A DNA stretch of 32,000 nucleotides from contig CP001848.1 in NCBI GenBank assembly GCA_000025185.1, forward strand, positions 1,170,001 through 1,202,000, given 5' to 3'. Source of the DNA: Pirellula staleyi DSM 6068 (GTDB lineage: Bacteria; Planctomycetota; Planctomycetia; Pirellulales; Pirellulaceae). Below are positions 7,437 to 24,426 of this stretch, piece after piece. The stretch's first letter is position 1; each line of letters begins with the position of its first letter. Position numbers and translations under genes: made by a program. The notes beneath the pieces were generated by a model that saw only the letters and a program-made list of their open reading frames with translations, did no database searches and was not told where the DNA came from.

Positions 7437-8804
7437 GTGACGAACGACAACTTGGAGAACGACAGCTTCGATGACGGAGCTGACGAAAACCAGCCGATCC
7501 TGCGGATCGATGGCTCGCACCGCCGTGGCAAACGGGGAGCCCCGAAGAGCGTCGAGGTGCCTCCTGCTGATGCCGTGCTGATCGTTTCGCCCGAGGAACT
7601 TCCGACCGAGGAGGTGTCGCAAGAGGTCCTGTCGTACATTGCCGGACGCGACCCAGCCGCTGTGCAGTCGCAGCTCGACGAGCAGGCGATTCAACTGGCC
7701 TCGCATATGGCCGCTCGGCTGAAAGAGCTCGATCGACGCGAGGCGACCCTCAACGCGCGGATTGCGCAGCTCGAAACCGAGGTGCGATTGTCGCGACTCG
7801 CCGATCGTGAGCGGGTGATGGCAACTGCCGAGCGCGAAAAAGAGATCGAGCAGCGCGAACAGATTCTGCATGATCTGGAACACGATTTCGCCCGCCGCGA
7901 TAGCGCCCTGCGCGAGCAAGAAGGAACGCACCAAGCGAGCGGAATCGATGCTTCGGCCCTGGCCCAGCGCGAAGATCAGCTCCGTGCTCGTCGCCAAGAC
8001 TTAGACCGCGCCGCTTCGAATTTTCACCATGCCCAGCTTTTGTGGGATCGCGAAAAAGCGACGCAGGAGCAAGCAGCCGCCGACAAACTGGCCGCAGAGC
8101 GGGCCGCTCTCGAACTCGAGTATGCCGCGCGTCACAAGCGACTCGACGAGGTGGAACTGCAGCTTCTCGCCCAAACCCAGCAAGTGGCCAGCGAACTGCG
8201 CTCGCTCAGCGACGAACGTGCCACCTGGAATGTCGAGCGCGAGCGGCAACTGCGTGCCATCGAAAAGCGATCGGCAGTCGCCGAGGAGCAGCTGGCGCGA
8301 AAAACCAAGGCCATCGCCACGCGCGAGACGATGCTCGACGAGCAGCAGCGGAGCCTGCTTACGCTGCAAGATCAACTCCACACGATGCACCGCGAAACGT
8401 TGGAAATGCGGCTGATTGCCGAGCAACTCTGGGCCCAAACGAGTGGTCGGCTCTCGACGCCGGAAGTGATGCAATCGATCGCCGCACTTCGGCTCAAACT
8501 GGCCGAGCATTATCAGATCGACCTGGCGCAAGTGGCCAAAGAGCGCGAAGAGCTTTCGCGCCTCGCCACGCGACTTGCCGAACAAGCGCGTGCCCTGGAT
8601 TCGCGTCATCAGGAGCTCAAAACCTGGCGCAGCCGCGAGCAGCAAGCGGTGGAGCACGACGCGCGACAACTCCTCGCGCAGCAAATCGAGCTCGAAGAGC
8701 AATCGAGTCGTCTCGCAGCCGAGCGTGCTACGTGGCAAGAGGAGCGCCGGCGACTACTCGCCGAGATCCGCGAACTCCGTAAAGCGGAACTGACGAGCGT
8801 ATAA
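7437..8804 (+). CDS. Long coiled-coil protein of unknown function, rich in E/R/Q/A/L
   Basis: The track ORF is 7179-8804. I favour the GTG at 7437, preceded by AGGAGG (7423-7428) at 8-nt spacing; the ATG at 7377 is an alternative. Heptad-like sequence runs for more than 350 aa. An internal repeat is present: ERATWNVERERQLRAIE and ERATWQEERRRLLAEIRE. Confidence 0.6.
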   Translation: MTNDNLENDSFDDGADENQPILRIDGSHRRGKRGAPKSVEVPPADAVLIVSPEELPTEEVSQEVLSYIAGRDPAAVQSQLDEQAIQLASHMAARLKELDRREATLNARIAQLETEVRLSRLADRERVMATAEREKEIEQREQILHDLEHDFARRDSALREQEGTHQASGIDASALAQREDQLRARRQDLDRAASNFHHAQLLWDREKATQEQAAADKLAAERAALELEYAARHKRLDEVELQLLAQTQQVASELRSLSDERATWNVERERQLRAIEKRSAVAEEQLARKTKAIATRETMLDEQQRSLLTLQDQLHTMHRETLEMRLIAEQLWAQTSGRLSTPEVMQSIAALRLKLAEHYQIDLAQVAKEREELSRLATRLAEQARALDSRHQELKTWRSREQQAVEHDARQLLAQQIELEEQSSRLAAERATWQEERRRLLAEIRELRKAELTSV

Positions 8805-8917
8805 GCGTGGCCTCTCGAAGCGACCGCTGCGCCGCACGACCGGATGTCGATCCGCTAAGATGCAAATAAGCCAGCAGCATCTTTCGGTCGCATCGTTCGC
8901 TTACTAAACGCCGCGCT

Positions 8918-9895
8918 ATGTCCTCTTCGTCCGACAATTCGCTCCCCCGCTTGCCGCGCCTCGGTCTCCCCAACTTGGGGCTGGGCGTTGGGCTGCGGAG
9001 CTCGCATTTTGGCTACCTACTGCGCGAGCAACCAGCAGTCGATTGGCTCGAGGTACTGAGCGAAAACTACCTCGATTCGCAAGGTCGCCCCCGCGCGGTG
9101 GTTCGCACACTAGCCGAGCACTATCCGCTGGTGCTGCATGGCGTTTCTCTCTCGATTGGCAGCACCGATCCGCTGAACTTTGGGTATCTCGAAAAGCTTC
9201 GCGCGCTGGCCGCCGAAACCGAGGCCCGCTGGGTGAGCGATCACTTGTGCTGGACCGGTGTGATGGGGCGCAATTCGCACGATCTGCTTCCCCTCCCCCT
9301 CACCGAAACTTGCCTCGCGCATGTCGCCGCGCGCGTCCATGCGGTGCAAGAGTTCTTGGGTAGGCCGATCGTTCTCGAAAACCCTAGCTCTTACATCACC
9401 TTCGCGCAATCCACGTTAGGTGAAGCAGAGTTCCTGGCTACCCTCTCCCAGCAAACGGGCTGTGGTCTATTATTAGATCTTAATAACGTCTTGGTCTCTT
9501 GCATCAATCATGGATGGGACCCCATTGAGTATTTAGATACCATTCCAGCCGATCGCGTTGTGCAGATGCATTTGGCGGGACATACTAAACTCGCCACGCA
9601 CTTATTAGATACCCACGATGGTCCGGTAATCGATCCCGTTTGGCAGCTCTTTGCCTATGCGACTCAAAAAACCGGAGCCGTTAGTACCCTACTGGAATGG
9701 GACGCTAAAATTCCAGAGTTTCCCGTCGTGCATGCGGAAGTGCTGCGGGCGAAATCGATGATCGAGCAGTACCTCAATCAGTCGGCGGATAGCATTCGCG
9801 CGAGTTGCCGTGAATATGCCAGTCGCGAGGCTTCTGAGCCTCAATCGCTGGCGATTCCACACCCTTCGACACTCGCTACCGCAGAAGTGGAGTAG
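8918..9895 (+). CDS. DUF692-family protein (MNIO: multinuclear non-heme iron oxidative enzyme; the MbnB/TglH/BufB/HvfB family)
   Basis: 325-aa ORF. Family-typical blocks are GLGVGLRSSHF, VDWLEVLSENY, LHGVSLSIGS, WVSDHLCW, VLENPSSY and LLLDLNNV..NHGWD. It also has the HLAGHT...DTHD metal-ligand regions of the TIM-barrel DUF692 fold. Confidence 0.85.
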   Translation: MSSSSDNSLPRLPRLGLPNLGLGVGLRSSHFGYLLREQPAVDWLEVLSENYLDSQGRPRAVVRTLAEHYPLVLHGVSLSIGSTDPLNFGYLEKLRALAAETEARWVSDHLCWTGVMGRNSHDLLPLPLTETCLAHVAARVHAVQEFLGRPIVLENPSSYITFAQSTLGEAEFLATLSQQTGCGLLLDLNNVLVSCINHGWDPIEYLDTIPADRVVQMHLAGHTKLATHLLDTHDGPVIDPVWQLFAYATQKTGAVSTLLEWDAKIPEFPVVHAEVLRAKSMIEQYLNQSADSIRASCREYASREASEPQSLAIPHPSTLATAEVE

Positions 9896-9898
9896 GCT

Positions 9899-10795
9899 GT
9901 GAATCGTCGCGAATTACCGCTGGAAACCTTACAGCAATGGATGCTCACGGCTATTGCGCACCCAGGTGGAATCCGCGCGGGTCTTGATGCTGCGCAGCGC
10001 GCGACGGGCATTCATGCCGAACATCTAAGCTCCTTGATTTCGCCCAGCCAGTGGCAATCTTCCGCCGAGCGACTGGCGGTTTATAACGACGCCTATTTTG
10101 CGCGTCTTTTGGCTTGTATGGTCGAGCTCTTTCCCGCCACAGCCGAGCTTTTAGGTCTCGAAGCCTTTCAAGCCCTTGCAGCGCGCTATTTAGTCACCCA
10201 TCCACCTACCAGTTATTCATTGCATCATCTGCCCGATACCTTTGAAGCCCACTTACAATCGCGCTTGCCCGACGATGATCCGCTCGCGATCTGCGTGCTC
10301 GATATGCTGCGGCTGGAGCGCGCCATCGACCGGGTGTTTGATGGTCCGGGTCTGGAAGAGCAAACGCTCGTGCCGCTGCACGAAAAACTTGCCTCGGTGC
10401 AGCTCGATGAGCTGCTGGCCAGCCGACTCGTGCTCCATCCGAGCTTACAGATTCTCGAGCTGCGCTCGGCGGTGAGTCACTTTTACACCCAGTTTCGCAA
10501 GCAACAGCGTCGCGAGCTGCCTGCGATCTTCAACGCGCCGGAATCGCTCGCCCTGATTCGCCGCCACTACATTGTGCAGCGGGTTCCCCTCTCTCCAGCC
10601 GAGCATCTGCTGATTCGCGCGGCACAGCAGCATCCGCTGGTGAGCGAACTACTCGAGCATCTAGGGGAACTGGCCGAGTCGCAGCAGCGCGACCACAAGC
10701 TGGCCGAGACGGCCCTCGCCGAGCTCCGCCCGATCATGGCGCGGCTGGCTGAAACGGGCGTTTTTTGCGATCTTCACTTCCAGCAGCGCGATTAA
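9899..10795 (+). CDS. DUF2063-domain protein (HvfC/BufC-like partner of DUF692 enzymes)
   Basis: The GTG start lies 3 nt after the DUF692 stop, which implies translational coupling. The N-terminal segment LQQWMLTAIAHP...AERLAVYNDAYFARLLACMVELFPATAELLG..FQALAARYLVTHPPTSYSL matches my memory of the DUF2063 signature (..YRN.....L...L...FP....LLG...F..LA..Y....P). Confidence 0.75.
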   Translation: MNRRELPLETLQQWMLTAIAHPGGIRAGLDAAQRATGIHAEHLSSLISPSQWQSSAERLAVYNDAYFARLLACMVELFPATAELLGLEAFQALAARYLVTHPPTSYSLHHLPDTFEAHLQSRLPDDDPLAICVLDMLRLERAIDRVFDGPGLEEQTLVPLHEKLASVQLDELLASRLVLHPSLQILELRSAVSHFYTQFRKQQRRELPAIFNAPESLALIRRHYIVQRVPLSPAEHLLIRAAQQHPLVSELLEHLGELAESQQRDHKLAETALAELRPIMARLAETGVFCDLHFQQRD

Positions 10796-10954
10796 TGACC
10801 TTCGATCCATCGAAAATCTCGATAGTAAGCATCGAAAGATTTTCAGTAATCGCCGCCTCTTGCGCGCTGATAATAGCTAGGCCTTAGCGCTACCCGTGCG
10901 CACTTGCGTCGCCGCAAGCTCTGCTGAGCATCGACACCCCCGAAGGATGGATTG

Positions 10955-11686
10955 ATGACGAAAAAGAGTTCCGCTCCGAAGAGTCCCACCAAGAATCCAC
11001 CCCAAAAGCAAGTTCTGCTGCTGTCGTGCATGGACCTGCGACTCGCCGACGACACTGCCCGCTTTATGGACGCCTATAATCTTCAAAACCGCTACGACCA
11101 TCTAACTTTCGCTGGCGCAGCAATGGGAGCGCTTCATCTGGGCACACCAATCGAGCAGTCCAATCGATCCATGGTCACTTTGCCTTGGAAGAAGGTCTTC
11201 TTCCACCATTTTCAAGTGGCCATTGAAGTTTTAAGGCGAGAAATCAAAGATGTATTTCTAGTCGAGCATTTTGACTGTGGCGCCTATAAGAACTTGCATC
11301 CCAGTGCAGACGTTCGCCGTGAGTACGAGCGCCTGAGTCGGATGGATATGAAGCTGCTAGAACCCATCCATGCCGAAGAGGCCGCCGCATTCGCCGACGA
11401 AATAAAAGAGTTCTGTGATGAACGCCAAGCTTTTCATGGTACAGTGTTAGTCGCTATTCAAACCCTAATCACGGTGGGAAGCAACGCTCCCAGCGAAGTA
11501 AAGAAGTTGTTTCGCCAAGTGTTTGAGCCAGAATCGACATGCCCGATCGAAAAATGGAAGGTTCCGGCAGCTGAGTTGCTATACCGAAAACTCATTGAGA
11601 CCGAGCTGAAGGTTGCTGCATGGAAAGATATTGGCGTGCGAGCTTATGTTCTCGATCTTAAGGGTAATCCTATCGATCTGTTTTAA
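10955..11686 (+). CDS. Beta-carbonic-anhydrase-like (Cys-Asp-Arg ... His-x-x-Cys) metalloprotein, divergent, with an extra C-terminal half
   Basis: The ATG at 10955 is preceded by GAAGGA (10942-10947). The motifs VLLLSCMDLRL (C-x-D-x-R) and VFLVEHFDCGAY (H-x-x-C-G) reproduce the beta-CA zinc-ligand pattern. However, the Cys-to-His spacing is longer (80 aa) and about 130 aa follow that I cannot assign. The gene is lower in GC, about 47% in the one 60-nt line I counted. Confidence 0.5.
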   Translation: MTKKSSAPKSPTKNPPQKQVLLLSCMDLRLADDTARFMDAYNLQNRYDHLTFAGAAMGALHLGTPIEQSNRSMVTLPWKKVFFHHFQVAIEVLRREIKDVFLVEHFDCGAYKNLHPSADVRREYERLSRMDMKLLEPIHAEEAAAFADEIKEFCDERQAFHGTVLVAIQTLITVGSNAPSEVKKLFRQVFEPESTCPIEKWKVPAAELLYRKLIETELKVAAWKDIGVRAYVLDLKGNPIDLF

Positions 11687-11902
11687 TAGTGAAATACATT
11701 CGCAGGCTATCGGTCTGTCGTTTTATCATGCTGCTCGGGAGTATAGGTTTCTCGAGCCGAAGATTTCGCGAGGCCCAGGCAATCCATGCCGATGAAGCCG
11801 CTAAGCGAAGATAAGCTTTGTATTATTGTGCTCAAACGGTGTTTTAGTAGTGGATAGTTACTTAGTGATCTCAGAACTCTTCGCACCAAAAAGGAGATTC
11901 TA

Positions 11903-12200
11903 GTGATTGCTTTCGATGTGTCGGTGAATGGTCGTGTGATTCAGACCGTTGGTGCAGGTGAAAAGGGCATGATCAGAACCGAACTGATGTGGGCTTGTTT
12001 CACCAGACACATCGGGAGGCGATTGGAGTTAATTGCAACTCTCTTCTCGTGGGATGAATGGGGAAGGGTCGGCGCACTTGTCATGGGACACGTGGCATTG
12101 CAGACCTGGCGATGAAGTGACGATTCGAATTGTTGAGCGCGATGCGGTTGATCCCCCAGACGAAACTACGCCGGCGAAACCTCGACCAGGGGGCGGATGA
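11903..12200 (+). pseudogene. Small conserved-looking gene apparently broken by a 1-nt frameshift near 12028-12035
   Basis: The GTG at 11903 has a strong SD (AAGGAG, 11891-11896). Frame A reads MIAFDVSVNGRVIQTVGAGEKGMIRTELMWA...RRLEL and then degenerates to a stop at 12113-12115. The +1 frame, open from 12033, reads LQLSSRGMNGEGSAHLSWDTWHCRPGDEVTIRIVERDAVDPPDETTPAKPRPGGG and stops at 12198-12200; this looks like a genuine C-terminus. Confidence 0.3.
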
Positions 12201-12498
12201 AGTGCCTTCGGTGGTTGCTGCAGTTGTCCTAACCCCTTACGGGGCGCTGGGTTGACGACTTTTAGGGTGGCCGCTAGATTATGGGATTCCTCAGGGCTAT
12301 TCGTGCGCGTTTCCAGGCCGAATATGCCGTGGGTGATCAGCCGAGCGGCTGATCGTAAACTGTTATCTGGAAACCATTTATCCCGCTCCAAGCGAAGGCT
12401 CTTAAGACCTGTGACGTAAACGGCTCGAGACACTTGCCCCTGGGCAAATGGCTCCGCCAGTCATGGCTACTAGGGTGTGGGAAAGAAAGAGGACACTC

Positions 12499-13269
12499 GT
12501 GTCGGCAGATACGCTCGTTGCAGAATTGGTGGAAGCTGGCGTTCACTTCGGTCACCGCGCAAGCCGCTGGAATCCGAAGATGGCCCCTTACATCTATGCC
12601 CGTAAGAACGGCATTCACATCGTTGATATCCGCGAAACCGTTCGCGGTTTGCTCCGTGCCAAGAAGTACCTGGCGCAAGTCGCTGCCCAAGGCAGCTTGA
12701 TCCTGTTCGTCGGCACCAAAAAGCAAGCGGGGCCCGCGATCGAACGCGAAGCACTCCGCTGCCACATGCCATTCGTTGCTGAACGTTGGCTCGGTGGCAC
12801 GCTCACCAACTTCCGCACGATTCGCAGCCGACTCGGTCGTCTCGAAGAAGTCGAGAAGGTGCGTGGCGGTGAAGAGCTCGCCACCTACAGCAAGAAGGCC
12901 CAATCGGCCCTCGCTCGCGAATATCGCAAGATGTATCGCAACCTCAACGGTATTCGCACGCTGAACCGCTTGCCAGAATGCCTGGTGATCTTCGATCCGA
13001 ACAAAGAAAAGAACGCGATCAAGGAAGCCCGCTCGCTCGGCATCAAGACCGTGGCTCTGATCGATACCGACTGCGATCCTGACACCGTTGACCTGCCAAT
13101 TCCAGGTAACGACGACGGTATCCGCTCGGTGGAACTGATCGCTCGCCACTTGGCTGAAGCGATCCTGGTGGGTGCTCAGTCGGCCGCTTCCCGCAAGGGT
13201 GACAAGGGCGATCGTCCAGCTCCAGCTGCCCCAGCTCCCGACAAGGATGCCGACGGCGCTTCGGCCTAA
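12499..13269 (+). CDS. rpsB: 30S ribosomal protein S2
   Basis: The sequence [35 protein letters not shown]...LFVGTKKQA...[11 protein letters not shown]...[15 protein letters not shown] is unmistakably S2. I prefer the GTG at 12499, after AAAGAGGA, to the track ATG at 12448. Confidence 0.93.
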
Positions 13270-18780: not shown

Positions 18781-19935
18781 CTAATCCAAGAACTCGCCCG
18801 ATTCGAGCAGTTCAGGAACATATTCCTCGGTGACGTAGCTGATATCTTTGCTGATCAAGGATTCGACTTCGAGTTTGAAGCCGTTCTTGAGCATCATTTC
18901 GATCTCTTTCTGCCACGCCTTTTTCTTGATGAACCAAGGATAGCTGGCGATTTGTTTGGCGCGCTTAATGTCTTGATCGTTGAGCTTGATCTTCACGCTG
19001 CTCGATAGGCCGCAGCGATCGTAGTCCAAACTACGCAGACCCAAATACCGCGCGCCAGGAATCGCCATCCGCTCGGATTCGTAGGCCAGGTTGATCGAGC
19101 CCTGCTTGATCACGCTGTAGATGTAGTAGCCCCACGGATCGTTATCGAGCAAGCAATAGACTGGCAACTTCAGTTCGTTATGCAACCGATAAAGCATCCG
19201 GCGCACGCCGCGCGGAGGCTGTCCCGCACCATGCGTGAGAATGCAGTTGTGCTTGAGCCAAAACTTATCTTCGTTGAAGCGCTGCCAGACTGTATCTTTT
19301 TCGACATGCAGGATGAACTTGGCTTTGACATTCTTAAACGTGATCCGGTCGGGTTCGACGATCGACGGAATGCCGTAGCCACCTGACCCCATGCGTGTGC
19401 AATCGATTTCATCGCCACTATCGACCACGGTGATCTGCCCCACCATTTCGCCGCGTTTTTGCGCGTAGAGATGGAGTTCTTCACGCAGCGAGGAGAGAAG
19501 CACCTCGACATCCTCGATCATCGTGTCGGATTCACTCTGCTCTTCGAAGGTCTCTTCGCTCGTCCCATCGATGGTGTGCTTGAGCATGTAGTACAGACCT
19601 CGAAGGCTCGTGGTCTTGCCTTGCTCGATGAGGCGCTTGCAGCCGCTGCCGACCAGCACTGTTTGCATGAACGCTTTGGCCTGCGACAGGTTGAAGAGTT
19701 CGCGCGATGTTTTGGAGCTTCCCATCTCCAAGATTTTTTGCGACTGGTTGAACTTCACGTTCGACAAGCTGCGACTGAGGATACTCATCTCTGGCGCTGT
19801 CTTTTGCGTAGCGCTTTTGGCGACATCGCTCGCGAGTTTCCTGAGGGAATCGAGCGTCTTCTTATCCTTGTCCGTCAATTTGACCGGTTCGGCAGGTTTA
19901 TTGGCCGGACGCGTATTGGAAGTCTTCTTAGCCAT
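18781..19935 (-). CDS. top6A: DNA topoisomerase VI subunit A (Spo11/Top6A family)
   Basis: 384-aa ORF. The catalytic-tyrosine region is TSLRGLYYMLK. The Toprim acidic residues are in FILHVEKDTVWQRF and YCLLDNDPWGYYIY. The C-terminal KLEVESL block is also present. Length and motif order match archaeal Top6A. Confidence 0.9.
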   Translation of the reverse strand: MAKKTSNTRPANKPAEPVKLTDKDKKTLDSLRKLASDVAKSATQKTAPEMSILSRSLSNVKFNQSQKILEMGSSKTSRELFNLSQAKAFMQTVLVGSGCKRLIEQGKTTSLRGLYYMLKHTIDGTSEETFEEQSESDTMIEDVEVLLSSLREELHLYAQKRGEMVGQITVVDSGDEIDCTRMGSGGYGIPSIVEPDRITFKNVKAKFILHVEKDTVWQRFNEDKFWLKHNCILTHGAGQPPRGVRRMLYRLHNELKLPVYCLLDNDPWGYYIYSVIKQGSINLAYESERMAIPGARYLGLRSLDYDRCGLSSSVKIKLNDQDIKRAKQIASYPWFIKKKAWQKEIEMMLKNGFKLEVESLISKDISYVTEEYVPELLESGEFLD

Positions 19936-20785: not shown

Positions 20786-22798
20786 CTACGACGCGGTGAC
20801 GCCACCCTCCTCTTCGTTTTGATTGACGATGAGGACATGCTCGCCAAAATCTTCTTCCTCTTGTTTTTCAATACGGCGGCCGCGATCGTCGAACTTGGCG
20901 TCAGCCTCGGCTGTCTTTTTCTTTGCGACCTGCAAGAGGCTCTCGTAGAGCTTGGTCTTGTCGTGCTTTTCGTCGATGGTGTTGATGGCGGTGGCCACTT
21001 CATTGAGGTAGCGCAGGAAGATGCTGCGGCGCTCTCCCTCTTGCTTCACCTTGTTGCGACGATTGAGGTAGATGCCCAGTTTGCGACCGACAGCTTGCAG
21101 GCCGAGGCGCAACTCTTTTTGGATTTCGGGATAGCCGGCGATTGCTTCTTTGGATTCGCTGGTGAACGGGACCCAAACGCTCGCCATGTGCACCATGATG
21201 GTGAGAGGACCTTGCGGCAACTGGCCGCGCGATTGCGAAACGCCATAGCTGCGCCAGTTGGTGGCGATGACACTTTGCGTGATCGCGCAGGCGGCATGCT
21301 GGAACTGCAGTGGCACGCGATTGGCGTAGCGCAGCACCTGCATCGTTTGCCCTTCGGAGAGGTTCACGTTCCGCATCGCCGCGTGGAGCGTGGCGATTTC
21401 GTCTTTCGTAAGTTTCGATGGGCTTTGGCGTGAGCCGAACTGCGCTTCGCTGAGGATCCGCTCGGAGGCATCGCTCCCGACACCATCGAAAGTGCTCATC
21501 AGGAACTGACGAAGTGTTCGCGCATCGCTTTCGCTCAGGAGCTCGGTGAGCGCTTCGAGCGACACCTTCTGGGCGGCGCTTACGCCACCAAAAGCGAGGC
21601 CGACTTCGATCTGGAACGGATTGCCGCGATAGACGGCGGGTGGACGAGTGGCAGCGGCGTAGAACTCGCCCGGGACCACATGATGCAAACCTTTGAGGAT
21701 CAAAGGTTCGCCGATCGGTGTAATGCAGTCGGTTGCCGGAGCGCTGATTTTGGTGGCCTGGATCGCTTGATAGAGGGCATCGACCTCTTGCCGGCCGATC
21801 CGTTTGCAATTGGCTCGGGTGCTGATTTTGGCCGTATCGCAAATCTCTTTGGCAACACTGGACGACACACGCGAGAACGAGTCGGTGAGGAACTGCGAGA
21901 TGGTGCCAGCGGGGGTGTCTTTGAGCATCGTCACCAAACGGCCCAGCTCGACGCCGTAGGGATGCGGCTTAATTTCTTTCGGTTCTGGGGGCAACTCGGT
22001 GGTGCTTCGGCTGTACGAAATGCTGCCGCCATCGGGATCGAAATAGTGGATCGTGACGTGCGGGTTGGCGATCGCCGTTTGCTCGAGATATTCATCCACG
22101 CTGCCGCGACCACGGATGTATTTCCCCTCGAGCTCGATCGTCACGCTGGTGCCACTCTTCACTTCGGTGGCTGGTTTTTCCCCTTCAGCGGGATACATCG
22201 TTTGCCAGCAAATGCCACGCTTGTCGAGCGTGGTGGCATCGGTTTCGATGTCTTCCCCTTCACCCTTACCGTTGATGATTTCGGGGTGGTTGCGCTTGGT
22301 ATCGATCTGGATTTCGAAGTAGTGCGCAGGTTTTTTCGGCGAGAGCTTGGAGACAATGCGGACCGGCTTGCCGGTGGTGAGCATGCCGTACATGCCAGCG
22401 GCCGAGATACCAATTCCTTGCTGACCGCGGCTCATCCGGAGGCGATGGAATTTGCTGCCGTAGAGGAGCTTGCCGAAAATCAGCGGAATCTGCTTTTTGA
22501 CGATGCCGGGACCGTTGTCTTGCACGGTCACCTGGTAGCGATTGTTGCCGGTCGAAGCCATCGTGACCCAGATTTCGGGAGTGATGCCCGCTTCTTCGCA
22601 CGCATCGAGGCTGTTGTCGACCGCCTCTTTCACCGTGGTGAGGAGCGCCTTGCGCGGATTATCAAAGCCGAGCAGATGGCGGTTCTTGGCGAAGAACTCA
22701 CTGACGGAGATATCGCGCTGCTTGGTCGCCATGCTCTCCGCTGTGGCGCGTCGCTGAGGTGCTTCCGGTGTCGTCGATTCGGAGTTGGCGTCGAGCAT
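20786..22798 (-). CDS. top6B: DNA topoisomerase VI subunit B (GHKL/Bergerat ATPase plus transducer domain)
   Basis: 670-aa ORF. The N-terminal region is ISVSEFFAKNRHLLGFDNPRKALLTTVKEAVDNSLDA (N-box). G1 is DNGPGI and G2 is SRGQQGIGIS. Helix-two-turn-helix and transducer regions follow, with a charged C-terminal tail. Confidence 0.9.
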   Translation of the reverse strand: MLDANSESTTPEAPQRRATAESMATKQRDISVSEFFAKNRHLLGFDNPRKALLTTVKEAVDNSLDACEEAGITPEIWVTMASTGNNRYQVTVQDNGPGIVKKQIPLIFGKLLYGSKFHRLRMSRGQQGIGISAAGMYGMLTTGKPVRIVSKLSPKKPAHYFEIQIDTKRNHPEIINGKGEGEDIETDATTLDKRGICWQTMYPAEGEKPATEVKSGTSVTIELEGKYIRGRGSVDEYLEQTAIANPHVTIHYFDPDGGSISYSRSTTELPPEPKEIKPHPYGVELGRLVTMLKDTPAGTISQFLTDSFSRVSSSVAKEICDTAKISTRANCKRIGRQEVDALYQAIQATKISAPATDCITPIGEPLILKGLHHVVPGEFYAAATRPPAVYRGNPFQIEVGLAFGGVSAAQKVSLEALTELLSESDARTLRQFLMSTFDGVGSDASERILSEAQFGSRQSPSKLTKDEIATLHAAMRNVNLSEGQTMQVLRYANRVPLQFQHAACAITQSVIATNWRSYGVSQSRGQLPQGPLTIMVHMASVWVPFTSESKEAIAGYPEIQKELRLGLQAVGRKLGIYLNRRNKVKQEGERRSIFLRYLNEVATAINTIDEKHDKTKLYESLLQVAKKKTAEADAKFDDRGRRIEKQEEEDFGEHVLIVNQNEEEGGVTAS

Positions 22799-23492: not shown

Positions 23493-23921
23493 ATGGTTCG
23501 AATGCTTGCTATTGCCAGCCTGGCCTTTTCTATCGCCATTGCGACTTCCTACGCCGCCAACGCCCAGGAAGTTTGCGAAAACTGCGAAGAAGGGGCAATT
23601 CAAGGTTGGGCCGGAAATCGTCGCGTTGGTGGAGCTGGCAACAGCTATTCGCCCGGCGGTTGCCAATATCGCGCTTATGGTCAGCCCGACCTGTTCTACA
23701 ACTACTACACCGGCGACAACTGCGGCGCAAACCCCGCTCAGATGTACCTGTCGCCACGTCCAGTTCCAGCGCACGTGGGGCACACCTACATCACCTATCA
23801 GCCCCTGATGCCGCACGAGTTTCTCTACCCTCACCACCGCACCTATCATCGCTACTACAACGGTGGCCAAGGGTTGACCCGCACGAGCGTGCATTACTAT
23901 TCGCCTCTGTTCCGCAAATAA
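23493..23921 (+). CDS. Small secreted Tyr/His/Gly/Pro-rich protein with 4 Cys, unknown function
   Basis: The ATG at 23493 has a strong SD (AAGGAG, 23479-23484). The signal peptide is MVRMLAIASLAFSIAIATSYAANA. The mature part contains CENC, GGCQY and DNCG, plus HVGHTYITYQPLMPHEFLYPHHRTYHRYY. Confidence 0.7.
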   Translation: MVRMLAIASLAFSIAIATSYAANAQEVCENCEEGAIQGWAGNRRVGGAGNSYSPGGCQYRAYGQPDLFYNYYTGDNCGANPAQMYLSPRPVPAHVGHTYITYQPLMPHEFLYPHHRTYHRYYNGGQGLTRTSVHYYSPLFRK

Positions 23922-24042
23922 TCAGCCTGGCAATTGGTTGCTCGGAAACGGTTGAAACTGTTTCCGAGCCGACACTTCCATCCGCTAGCCACTGCCGACT
24001 ACTACTTCACATCCGTCATCGCTCCCCCCGAGGAGATTGGTT

Positions 24043-24426
24043 ATGAAACTCGTTCCAACCGTCGCGCTGCTGGTGGTTGCAGCCGTGCTGGTCACCACCT
24101 TCGCAAGCACTGCCGAAGCTGGTGGACCGCATGGTCGCGCCGACCGTTTGGGTCGCTACTACGCTTCGCAGCGTCCGTGGCACGGCCCTTACGCCCACAC
24201 CAGCTACGGTGCACCGGTGGCCCTGATCGTTCCACCAACGGCCAACATGCACACCAGCTATGCCTGGGGTGTCGCTCAAACCGAAATGGTGCCGATTTAT
24301 CACCAGTTCCGTCGCGACTATCCGGGCGTCAGTGGTGGCGGTGGTGGCTATGGCTACATGCCCACACCTAACTGGCCCAGCCACACCGATCAGTTCGGTG
24401 TCTACCCAGTCCGTGGTCCATGGTAG
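24043..24426 (+). CDS. Small secreted His/Tyr/Pro/Gly/Trp-rich protein, unknown function
   Basis: The ATG at 24043 has SD AGGAG (24031-24035). The signal peptide is MKLVPTVALLVVAAVLVTTFASTAEA. The mature part contains WHGPYAHTSYG, NMHTSYAWG and a GGGGGYGYMP tract. A terminator follows. Confidence 0.7.
   Translation: MKLVPTVALLVVAAVLVTTFASTAEAGGPHGRADRLGRYYASQRPWHGPYAHTSYGAPVALIVPPTANMHTSYAWGVAQTEMVPIYHQFRRDYPGVSGGGGGYGYMPTPNWPSHTDQFGVYPVRGPW

Follow-up and report, generated by a model that had tools for sequence, protein, structure and literature searches.

Bufferins of the Bufferin 2 type (Buf2 or BUF_6/12Cys) are encoded by bufA2-bufB2-bufC2(-doxX) operons, for example in Caulobacter vibrioides (Leprevost et al. 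2024, PMC11626156; Antoine et al. 2025, PMC12452194). In Caulobacter, both the conversion of cysteines to 5-thiooxazoles and a function in copper buffering have been established (PMC11626156). The bufABC gene order is described in the literature as strictly conserved. A sizeable share of precursor genes does not adjoin genes for multinuclear non-haem iron oxidases (MNIO, DUF692), and modification from another locus is regarded as possible (PMC12452194). Among the 864 genomes with Buf_6-12Cys genes in Table 3 of that study, none was without an MNIO and a single one was without a PME-type 1 protein. Two further systems are close. The oxazolin system HvfABC of Haemophilus influenzae (PMC11252979) uses the same type of partner protein and a Cys-directed four-electron oxidation that yields copper ligands. 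Methanobactin synthesis by MbnBC shares the general chemistry of Cys oxidation; its precursors consist of a short leader and core and, unlike those of the bufferin type, have no signal peptide.

Here, we analyzed a 32 kb stretch of the genome of Pirellula staleyi DSM 6068 (the window), in which a DUF692 gene and a DUF2063 gene stand next to each other and no precursor gene adjoins them. We consider it likely, with a probability of about 0.8, that this pair is bufB-bufC, the Buf2-type bufferin maturase module of P. staleyi, physically parted from its precursor gene. The locus would thus be a split form of a known system, and existing catalogues already list its genes as bufferin MNIO and partner.

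The first gene of the pair, bufB (Psta_0948; 8918..9895, + strand), encodes a protein of 325 aa identical in sequence to ADB15633.1/WP_012909898.1 of P. staleyi DSM 6068. It is followed by bufC (9899..10795, + strand; 298 aa), the product of which is WP_012909899.1 according to the published listing and Psta_0949 by position. The junction (9893..9901, + strand) reads TAG-GCT-GTG, i.e., the bufB stop codon at 9893-9895, a gap of 3 nt, and the bufC GTG start codon at 9899, which confirms from the sequence the coupling described in the earlier note. Both open reading frames lie in one reading frame (9899-8918 = 981 = 3x327), and the GTG is the earliest start codon past the in-frame bufB stop. This start is supported by the nearly invariant residues L8, Q12, and W14, which precede the next ATG. 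In relatives, bufB and bufC usually overlap by 4 nt; in one locus (L007), the two genes apparently form one fused ORF. Translational coupling of the partner downstream of the MNIO is a feature of Bufferin 2 operons as well as of the canonical planctomycete loci. As the gene order recurs in three independent assemblies (L168, L169, and L001), the arrangement of the pair is not an assembly artefact.

Profile searches confirmed both family assignments. BufB matched the Pfam family PF05114 (MbnB_TglH_ChrH) over residues 22-282 with an E value of 6.5e-105 and 350.6 bits (gathering cut-off 25), covering 261 of 263 profile positions. Against the NCBIfam equivalog model NF050167 (MNIO_BufB), it scored 350.4 bits and thus passed the cut-off of 310, in common with the enzymes of Bufferin 2 and at odds with the idea of an outlying MNIO. 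Its scores for the HvfB, ApyH, MbnB, and ChrH models were all below the respective cut-offs, with 244 versus 360 for the HvfB equivalog and 48.6 versus 325 bits for MbnB. The nearest solved structure by sequence was 3BWW, a DUF692 protein of Haemophilus somnus (E 3.6e-41). Loss of metal ligands had been raised in the earlier note as an observation that would refute its proposal; all nine iron-ligand positions are present in BufB (H74, H109, E154, D187, N190, H218, D231, H233, and E260; reference ligands in MbnB: H54, H90, E133, D163, N166, H192, D208, H210, and E239) and are invariant across 84 aligned relatives.

BufB is 58-65% identical to the MNIOs of the canonical planctomycete loci, i.e., those of Planctopirus limnophila (WP_013111510-514), Planctomicrobium piriforme (L004), and Pan216 (L087). 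The C-terminal extension of ~45 aa that the earlier note had pointed out is real (~43 aa), but it is not distinctive: the tails of canonical relatives have a median length of 39 aa and share the terminal IP[HQ]P...AEVE motif, so that a tail motif of roughly 40 aa is common to both.

BufC matched the Pfam family PF09836 (DUF2063) with 66.2 bits (cut-off 27.2). It also aligned to positions 20-235 of the 237 positions of NF050145 (HvfC), with a score of 42.8 bits against a cut-off of 142. Judged by these profiles, BufC is related to HvfC, yet it is no HvfC equivalog. The AlphaFold2 (AF2) model of BufC (pLDDT 92.4, pTM 0.88) predicted a helical domain at residues 8-173 and a beta/alpha domain at residues 176-293. 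Foldseek searches with this model retrieved TglI (8hi7_A, E 2.3e-5) and NGO1945 (3dee, E 3.2e-4, TMt 0.69), and the length of BufC can be set beside the about 250-300 aa expected of two-domain PME-type 1 partners like NGO1945/TglI. The model thus confidently predicts a DUF2063 N-terminal domain joined to an RRE-like C-terminal domain, resembling TglI and NGO1945. A partner of this type, DUF2063 plus RRE (PME-type 1), is also found in Bufferin 2 systems, whereas MbnBC has MbnC in place of a DUF2063 protein.

The absence of a precursor gene next to the pair was borne out. The stop codon (TAA) of the upstream ORF occupies 8802-8804, which leaves a spacer of 113 nt (8805..8917) in front of bufB. 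It contains a single ORF of 20 aa at 8807-8869 (MASRSDRCAARPDVDPLRCK) with two Cys and no alignable conservation between the window and L001. No precursor upstream of the MNIO was found in L001, L168, or L169 either. Searching the full 32 kb by tblastn with two planctomycete precursors gave a best E value of about 0.2, and a crude scan of the window for short ORFs encoding Cys and an N-terminus of the Sec or Tat kind returned out-of-frame artefacts, with 23493-23921 as the only plausible gene. Scanning the window against Rfam and for tRNA genes gave no hits. The 20-aa ORF immediately precedes bufB on its strand and carries two Cys, and one might take it for a tiny methanobactin-type precursor that has escaped annotation in the flanking spacer. 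We regard this as the least probable explanation of all, as in L168, an assembly of the same species, its GTG start codon has mutated to GCG, conservation of the spacer with L001 is undetectable, the enzyme passes the BufB cut-off and falls far short of that for MbnB, and the literature pairs PME-type 1 partners with precursors that carry signal peptides.

No DoxX gene adjoins the pair. This had been noted correctly, but it is not odd in this planctomycete subfamily, as DoxX likewise does not adjoin the canonical loci L002, L004, and L087. The P. staleyi cluster differs in this respect from Bufferin 2 operons with DoxX and from the cluster of P. limnophila, which includes a DoxX gene.

To place the locus among its relatives, we compared it with related loci. 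A BufA2-like precursor was detected by phmmer in 68 of 86, nearly always directly upstream of the MNIO. The canonical planctomycete loci differ from that of P. staleyi in carrying their precursor genes in cis: one precedes bufB, and in some cases there is another ahead of bufC. When run against the BufA2 model, 27 of 30 precursors of the relatives matched at E < 0.01. In contrast to those of described Bufferin 2 systems, however, the planctomycete precursors did not reach the BufA2 cut-off (about 23-25 bits vs 60), and their signal is an invariant twin-arginine one (Tat-type), in many cases accompanied by a lipobox, whereas bufferins have been described with Sec signals. Eleven further loci contained the enzyme pair without a precursor in the flanks examined; together with the window and L001, these orphan loci fall into three clades in all, the other two of which include, for example, the MAGs JBAWWJ01, JAYSQC01, and DATATB01. 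Conversely, 7 of 51 evaluable metagenomic precursor loci were without an MNIO, three of them (L096, L137, and L149) with usable flanks on both sides. The tetranucleotide composition of the stand-alone metagenomic precursor loci correlated with that of the window at <= 0.77, compared to 0.94-0.995 for controls, which indicates that none of them originates from a Pirellula-like genome.

A candidate substrate is listed elsewhere in the genome. Table S2 of Antoine et al. 2025 (PMC12452194) assigns to P. staleyi (GCF_000025185.1) one DUF692 protein (WP_012909898.1), one DUF2063 protein (WP_012909899.1), and one Buf_6-12Cys precursor (WP_012909310.1), the latter classified as Buf_6/12Cys by the authors' HMM. 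The one Buf_6/12Cys gene listed for this genome would be a further likeness to Bufferin 2. The same table gives two DoxX genes with accessions distant from the pair and does not list an EGKCG-type precursor for this genome, which is another difference from HvfABC. In the paper texts and supplements searched, this table row is the sole mention of WP_012909310 or Psta_0948. WP_012909310.1 and WP_012909898.1 are 588 accession numbers apart. Along Psta_0948-0950, as along the P. limnophila cluster, accession numbers run consecutively; by this order, the precursor gene would lie ~590 genes (roughly 0.75 Mb) from the pair. Non-adjacency of the precursor sets P. staleyi apart from Bufferin 2 operons, and a split bufferin operon is atypical given the strictly conserved bufABC order reported.

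From this, we infer that WP_012909310.1 is the actual substrate of the pair. Regarding the alternatives left by the earlier note, a substrate in trans or one of an unrecognized class, encoding in trans is most likely, and a new class is not favored. The NF050167 score and the published table place the enzyme in a characterized clade with a candidate substrate of the known family listed elsewhere in the genome, an outcome that the note itself had named as running counter to its proposal.

A split arrangement could also result from decay, i.e., the pair could be what is left of a bufferin operon after loss of the precursor, with no function any more. The missing precursor in cis and the identity of just 55% between the DUF2063 proteins of the window and L001 agree with such a scenario. 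Against this, neither ORF is disrupted in any of the four assemblies, and comparison with the L001 orthologues gave dN/dS values of 0.057 for BufB and 0.20 for BufC, with dS saturated in both cases, indicating purifying selection on both genes. Moreover, the metal ligands are complete, the full two-domain architecture of the partner is confidently predicted, and a family-matched precursor is listed in the genome. We therefore consider decay very improbable.

The genes around the pair were evaluated as sources of another kind of substrate. Directly downstream on the + strand (10955..11686) lies Psta_0950, the product of which is identical to ADB15635.1/WP_012909900.1 of P. staleyi DSM 6068. The earlier description of this neighbor as a beta-carbonic-anhydrase-like metalloprotein held up: its classic zinc-binding motifs CxDxR (C25-x-D27-x-R29) and HxxC (H105-x-x-C108) do not vary among 21 homologues, and in Foldseek, the 26 best PDB matches of its AF2 model (pLDDT 87.9) were beta-carbonic anhydrases. 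TM scores were low (about 0.3-0.4), owing to a long helical insertion, and the match to Pfam Pro_CA_2 was below threshold (18.5, cut-off 30). Its distant homologues are found away from any MNIO, in unrelated surroundings that resemble mobile elements, and we rejected it as an obligate partner on these grounds. Psta_0950 is a conserved downstream neighbor in this lineage only and probably stands outside the bufferin system.

Upstream of the pair, a gene for a coiled-coil protein of 455 aa (7437..8804, + strand; gene call taken from L168, offset +954) has no Pfam match. The protein is 65% identical to its L001 counterpart and has no conserved Cys-rich segment, so that we treat it as context only and not as a substrate candidate. 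Further observations concern the non-coding parts and the wider surroundings. A palindrome-like element, GAAAATCTCGAT-N7-ATCGAAAGATTTTC, located directly past the bufC stop codon (10812..10844, + strand), is conserved between the window and L001, while the remaining spacer has diverged; its predicted RNA fold is thermodynamically unexceptional (z = -0.25). Less in keeping with a bufferin system, the pair resides amid the housekeeping genes groES, rpsB, tsf, pyrH, and frr, and no metal-responsive regulator is visible near it.

These neighbors bear on the possibility that the pair modifies a substrate of an unrecognized class instead of or besides the distal Buf2 precursor, with Psta_0950, the coiled-coil protein, and the small secreted proteins encoded at 23.5-24.4 kb as candidates. 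In its favor, the beta-carbonic-anhydrase-like and coiled-coil genes flank the pair in all four lineage assemblies, and the literature allows bona fide proteins as targets of some MNIOs. A terminator-like site occurs past the carbonic-anhydrase-like gene and not past bufC, in a promoter/terminator scan that performed no better than on shuffled sequence. The ORF 23493-23921 encodes a Sec-like signal and four Cys. However, an all-against-all comparison of the ORFs of the three orphan clades showed that MNIO and DUF2063 are the only families that they share. The two conserved Cys of Psta_0950 lie within the zinc-binding motifs of an enzyme fold, and, as described above, its distant homologues occur without an MNIO and the coiled-coil protein is free of a conserved Cys-rich segment. 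For the secreted proteins, which the earlier note had offered as speculative substrates, a search of 171 related loci (1.9 Mb) yielded no homologue, and the mature part of one of them (24037-24426) is without Cys; with no link to the pair, they were rejected. As the enzyme also passes the BufB threshold and a precursor of the cognate family is listed in the genome, a substrate of a new class appears unlikely, though less so than decay of the operon.

Returning to the split bufferin system as the preferred reading, we propose the following course of events. BufB would act as a multinuclear non-haem iron oxidase and would most likely form a complex with BufC in the cytoplasm, with expression of the two proteins tied by the TAG-GCT-GTG junction. 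The BufBC complex would most likely recognize WP_012909310.1, the one Buf_6/12Cys precursor of the genome, and BufB would oxidize conserved Cys of this precursor to 5-thiooxazoles. By analogy with the precursors of the relatives and their invariant twin-arginine motif, the modified protein may then be exported via Tat, and after export it would chelate excess periplasmic copper.

Two wider ideas, which we put forward jointly as a tentative and rather doubtful proposal, go beyond this. In Pirellula and the other two orphan clades, bufBC could have become uncoupled as a constitutive, general Cys-to-thiooxazole maturase in a housekeeping neighborhood (groES ... rpsB-tsf-pyrH-frr), serving distal substrates, one or several, that may extend past the single annotated Buf2 homologue. 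Planctomycete bufferins could represent a Tat-exported, often lipid-anchored subclass that is modified in the cytoplasm prior to export, unlike the Sec model of the literature.

Stand-alone precursor genes are a phenomenon that has been described already. P. staleyi DSM 6068 would provide a clean and cultivable case of a fully split bufferin system, with a single maturase pair and a single precursor far from it, which makes it convenient for testing substrate recognition by BufBC in trans. With their invariant twin-arginine motif, the planctomycete precursors would also allow a usable test of export through Tat rather than Sec. For genome scans, the lesson is that a BufB that passes the family threshold without an adjacent precursor is not evidence for a new substrate class.

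Both genes of the translationally coupled pair could be assigned to their families by Pfam, namely a DUF692 multinuclear iron oxidase (MNIO; 8918-9895, forward strand, 325 aa; PF05114 MbnB_TglH_ChrH, E 6.5e-105, residues 22-282) and a DUF2063 protein (9899-10795, forward strand, 298 aa; PF09836, 66.2 bits), which bears out the coordinates and families proposed in the earlier note. The MNIO reached the equivalog cut-off of NCBIfam NF050167, "MNIO family bufferin maturase" (350.4 vs 310 bits), and scored below the cut-offs for HvfB (244 vs 360), ApyH, MbnB and ChrH. Its homologues number in the thousands and are mainly planctomycete (~60-69% identity). All nine iron-ligand positions of MbnB (H54, H90, E133, D163, N166, H192, D208, H210 and E239; PMC9060507) are matched in the alignment by H74, H109, E154, D187, N190, H218, D231, H233 and E260, and these nine positions are invariant in 84 relatives. 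The C-terminal extension, previously regarded as a peculiarity, is a tail of ~43 aa common to canonical relatives (median 39 aa), which also share its terminal IP[HQ]P..AEVE motif. The predicted AF2 structure of the DUF2063 partner (pLDDT 92.4, pTM 0.88) comprises a helical N-domain and a beta/alpha C-domain, and its only significant PDB matches were TglI (E 2.3e-5), likewise the partner protein in TglHI, and NGO1945/3DEE (E 3.2e-4), the archetype of "PME-type 1" partners, i.e., DUF2063 plus RRE (PMC12452194). This analysis establishes the enzyme side (bufB-bufC) of what is most likely a split Buf2 bufferin system.

Reading the junction from the sequence, bufB stops with TAG at 9893-9895 and bufC starts with GTG at 9899. 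The two genes share one reading frame and are therefore separated by TAG-GCT alone (9893-9901). Stop-codon readthrough at this site would result in a BufB-BufC fusion protein; in a Schlesneria MAG (L007:6046-7950), the two appear fused in a single 634-aa ORF. Upstream, the preceding ORF ends at 8804, and the 113-nt spacer holds a single 20-aa ORF that has lost its start codon to mutation in another assembly of the species, in agreement with the earlier reading that no precursor gene lies there. No DoxX gene adjoins the pair, an absence that had been taken as an oddity but is common in planctomycete loci (L002, L004, L087). Just 3' of the bufC stop, a palindrome-like element, GAAAATCTCGAT-N7-ATCGAAAGATTTTC (10812-10844), is kept in the more distant orthologous locus L001 despite divergence of the remaining spacer; as its RNA folding energy is ordinary, it may be a protein-binding site.

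We rejected the possibility that the pair is a relic. The order groES / coiled-coil / MNIO / DUF2063 / carbonic anhydrase (CA)-like / rpsB recurs in two loci of the same species (L168 and L169, 98-99% identical) and in L001 (MNIO 80%, DUF2063 55% identity). For the MNIO, dN/dS between the window and L001 was 0.057, and for DUF2063 it was 0.20; saturation of synonymous sites makes these values rough, yet they are clearly well below 1. Judged from these comparisons, the pair is predicted to be functional. Between the same two loci, rpsB (12448-13269 vs L001:5396-6163) is 98.8% identical with a dS of 0.32, whereas the MNIO, DUF2063, CA-like and coiled-coil genes show a dS above 2 and 55-80% identity, an unusually large divergence contrast across about 4 kb.

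Canonical loci such as L002, L004 (Planctomicrobium piriforme) and L087 (Pan216) carry a 138-162-aa gene directly 5' of the MNIO, whose product combines a Cys-rich core with an RRxF twin-arginine signal and, in many cases, a lipobox. These BufA2-like precursors (L002:5483-5971, L004:5468-5923, L087:4462-4878, and 27 further loci in our planctomycete precursor alignment) match the NCBIfam BufA2 model, but below its threshold (~23-25 bits vs a cut-off of 60). Using phmmer, a precursor was detected in 68 of 86 loci, nearly always immediately 5' of the MNIO, with a second copy before bufC in a few of the 86; L085 contains a divergent precursor undetected by phmmer. No precursor was found in 13 loci (the window, L001 and 11 others; 4-21 kb of sequence each). 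These orphan loci form three clades in a neighbor-joining tree, two of them besides that of the window (L006, L008, L011, L015, L023, L037 and L038; L007, L020, L025 and L027). Orphan status tracks MNIO phylogeny, suggesting that the genes separated a few times long ago and that the pattern is not assembly noise. Beyond MNIO and DUF2063, no gene family was found common to the 13 loci. Conversely, searching metagenomes with the precursor profile gave 51 loci that extend 700 nt or more downstream: an MNIO was present in 43, one was a second precursor before bufC, and seven had an intact Tat-type precursor and no MNIO in the available sequence (L096, L137 and L149 with usable flanks on both sides). 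Together with the 13 orphan pairs, this makes the two halves of the split system similarly frequent (about 14-16%).

The window MNIO is identical in sequence to ADB15633.1/WP_012909898.1 ("DUF692", Pirellula staleyi DSM 6068; Psta_0948) and the CA-like ORF to ADB15635.1/WP_012909900.1 (Psta_0950), both of them members of the 90%-identity clusters of two search hits. For this genome (GCF_000025185.1), Table S2 of Antoine et al. 2025 (PMC12452194) lists one Buf_6-12Cys precursor (WP_012909310.1), one DUF692 (WP_012909898.1), one DUF2063 (WP_012909899.1), two DoxX (WP_012910552.1 and WP_052303640.1, both distant accessions), one TIGR04222 (WP_044182403.1), and neither Buf1 nor Buf_EGKCG. Accession order follows gene order both for 898, 899 and 900 (Psta_0948-0950) and in Planctopirus limnophila, where accessions 510-514 form a contiguous Buf2-MNIO-DoxX-Buf2-DUF2063 cluster; by this order, the listed precursor gene would lie ~590 genes, about 0.75 Mb, upstream of the pair. 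All 864 genomes with Buf_6-12Cys genes contain an MNIO (PMC12452194). The locus is a bufferin maturase pair, a system already known, and its genome is likewise known and has been catalogued before; the precursor-in-trans arrangement, here with a precursor assigned by the published table, is a described minority one. Of the two options raised earlier for the substrate, the evidence supports one encoded in trans and makes an unrecognized class unlikely.

A split Buf2 bufferin system is the best-supported account of the locus. BufB and BufC would be co-translated from the coupled genes and bind the distal precursor, which we infer to be WP_012909310.1, in the cytoplasm. They would then turn its conserved Cys into 5-thiooxazoles, and the modified product would probably be exported. 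The 5-thiooxazole chemistry and copper-buffering function have been shown for Caulobacter bufferins (PMC11626156).

A BufB-like MNIO also occurs singly in some planctomycetes, whose genomes have neither a DUF2063 partner for it nor a listed bufferin precursor: Schlesneria sp. T3-172 (L086, CP172346.1, 3793-5936), Rubinisphaera brasiliensis and Singulisphaera acidiphila (Table S2 rows). The MNIO start in L086 is overlapped by a gene for a secreted protein of 403 aa that lacks Cys. Loci of this kind are explained less well than that of the window.

Downstream of bufC, the beta-CA-like neighbor noted previously (10955-11686) was corroborated by CxDxR and HxxC motifs invariant in 21 homologues and by an AF2 model (pLDDT 87.9) whose 26 best PDB matches are all beta-carbonic anhydrases. 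The family is rare, forming 21 clusters in a set of 5.8 billion proteins, and the protein has a long helical insertion. Its counterpart in same-species L169 (5112-5768; 218 vs 243 aa, 68% identity) has a different C-terminal half in place of the one in the window, with the genes on either side 98-100% identical to those of the window. Outside the window lineage, the family occurs in mobile-element-like contexts with no MNIO, distant members (L170, L171) adjoining integrase, Piwi plus DpnII-like, Prim-Pol and transposase genes. The gap from the CA-like gene to rpsB (11687-12447, about 760 nt; about 330 nt in L001) contains short overlapping ORF fragments alone, e.g., 11903-12115 and 12033-12200. 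Two small secreted proteins encoded side by side (23493-23921 and 24037-24426) have a high content of Tyr, His, Pro and Gly. Neither matched a Pfam or NCBIfam family or had a homologue among the compared loci; having no homologues near any other MNIO, they lose the standing of candidate substrates suggested for them. The window also encodes topoisomerase VI, an archaeal-type enzyme (subunit A, Spo11/TP6A-like, 18781-19935; subunit B, 20786-22798; both reverse strand, from Pfam matches of L168).

The twin-arginine motif NRRDFxxLTxAAxGG is invariant in 30/30 aligned planctomycete precursors, many of which carry a lipobox (LAGC). In the bufferin papers, the signal peptides are described as Sec, and the main text of PMC12452194 contains no mention of Tat. 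Planctomycete bufferin precursors have Tat-type signals where the described bufferins have Sec signals, which we consider the most interesting observation of this analysis.
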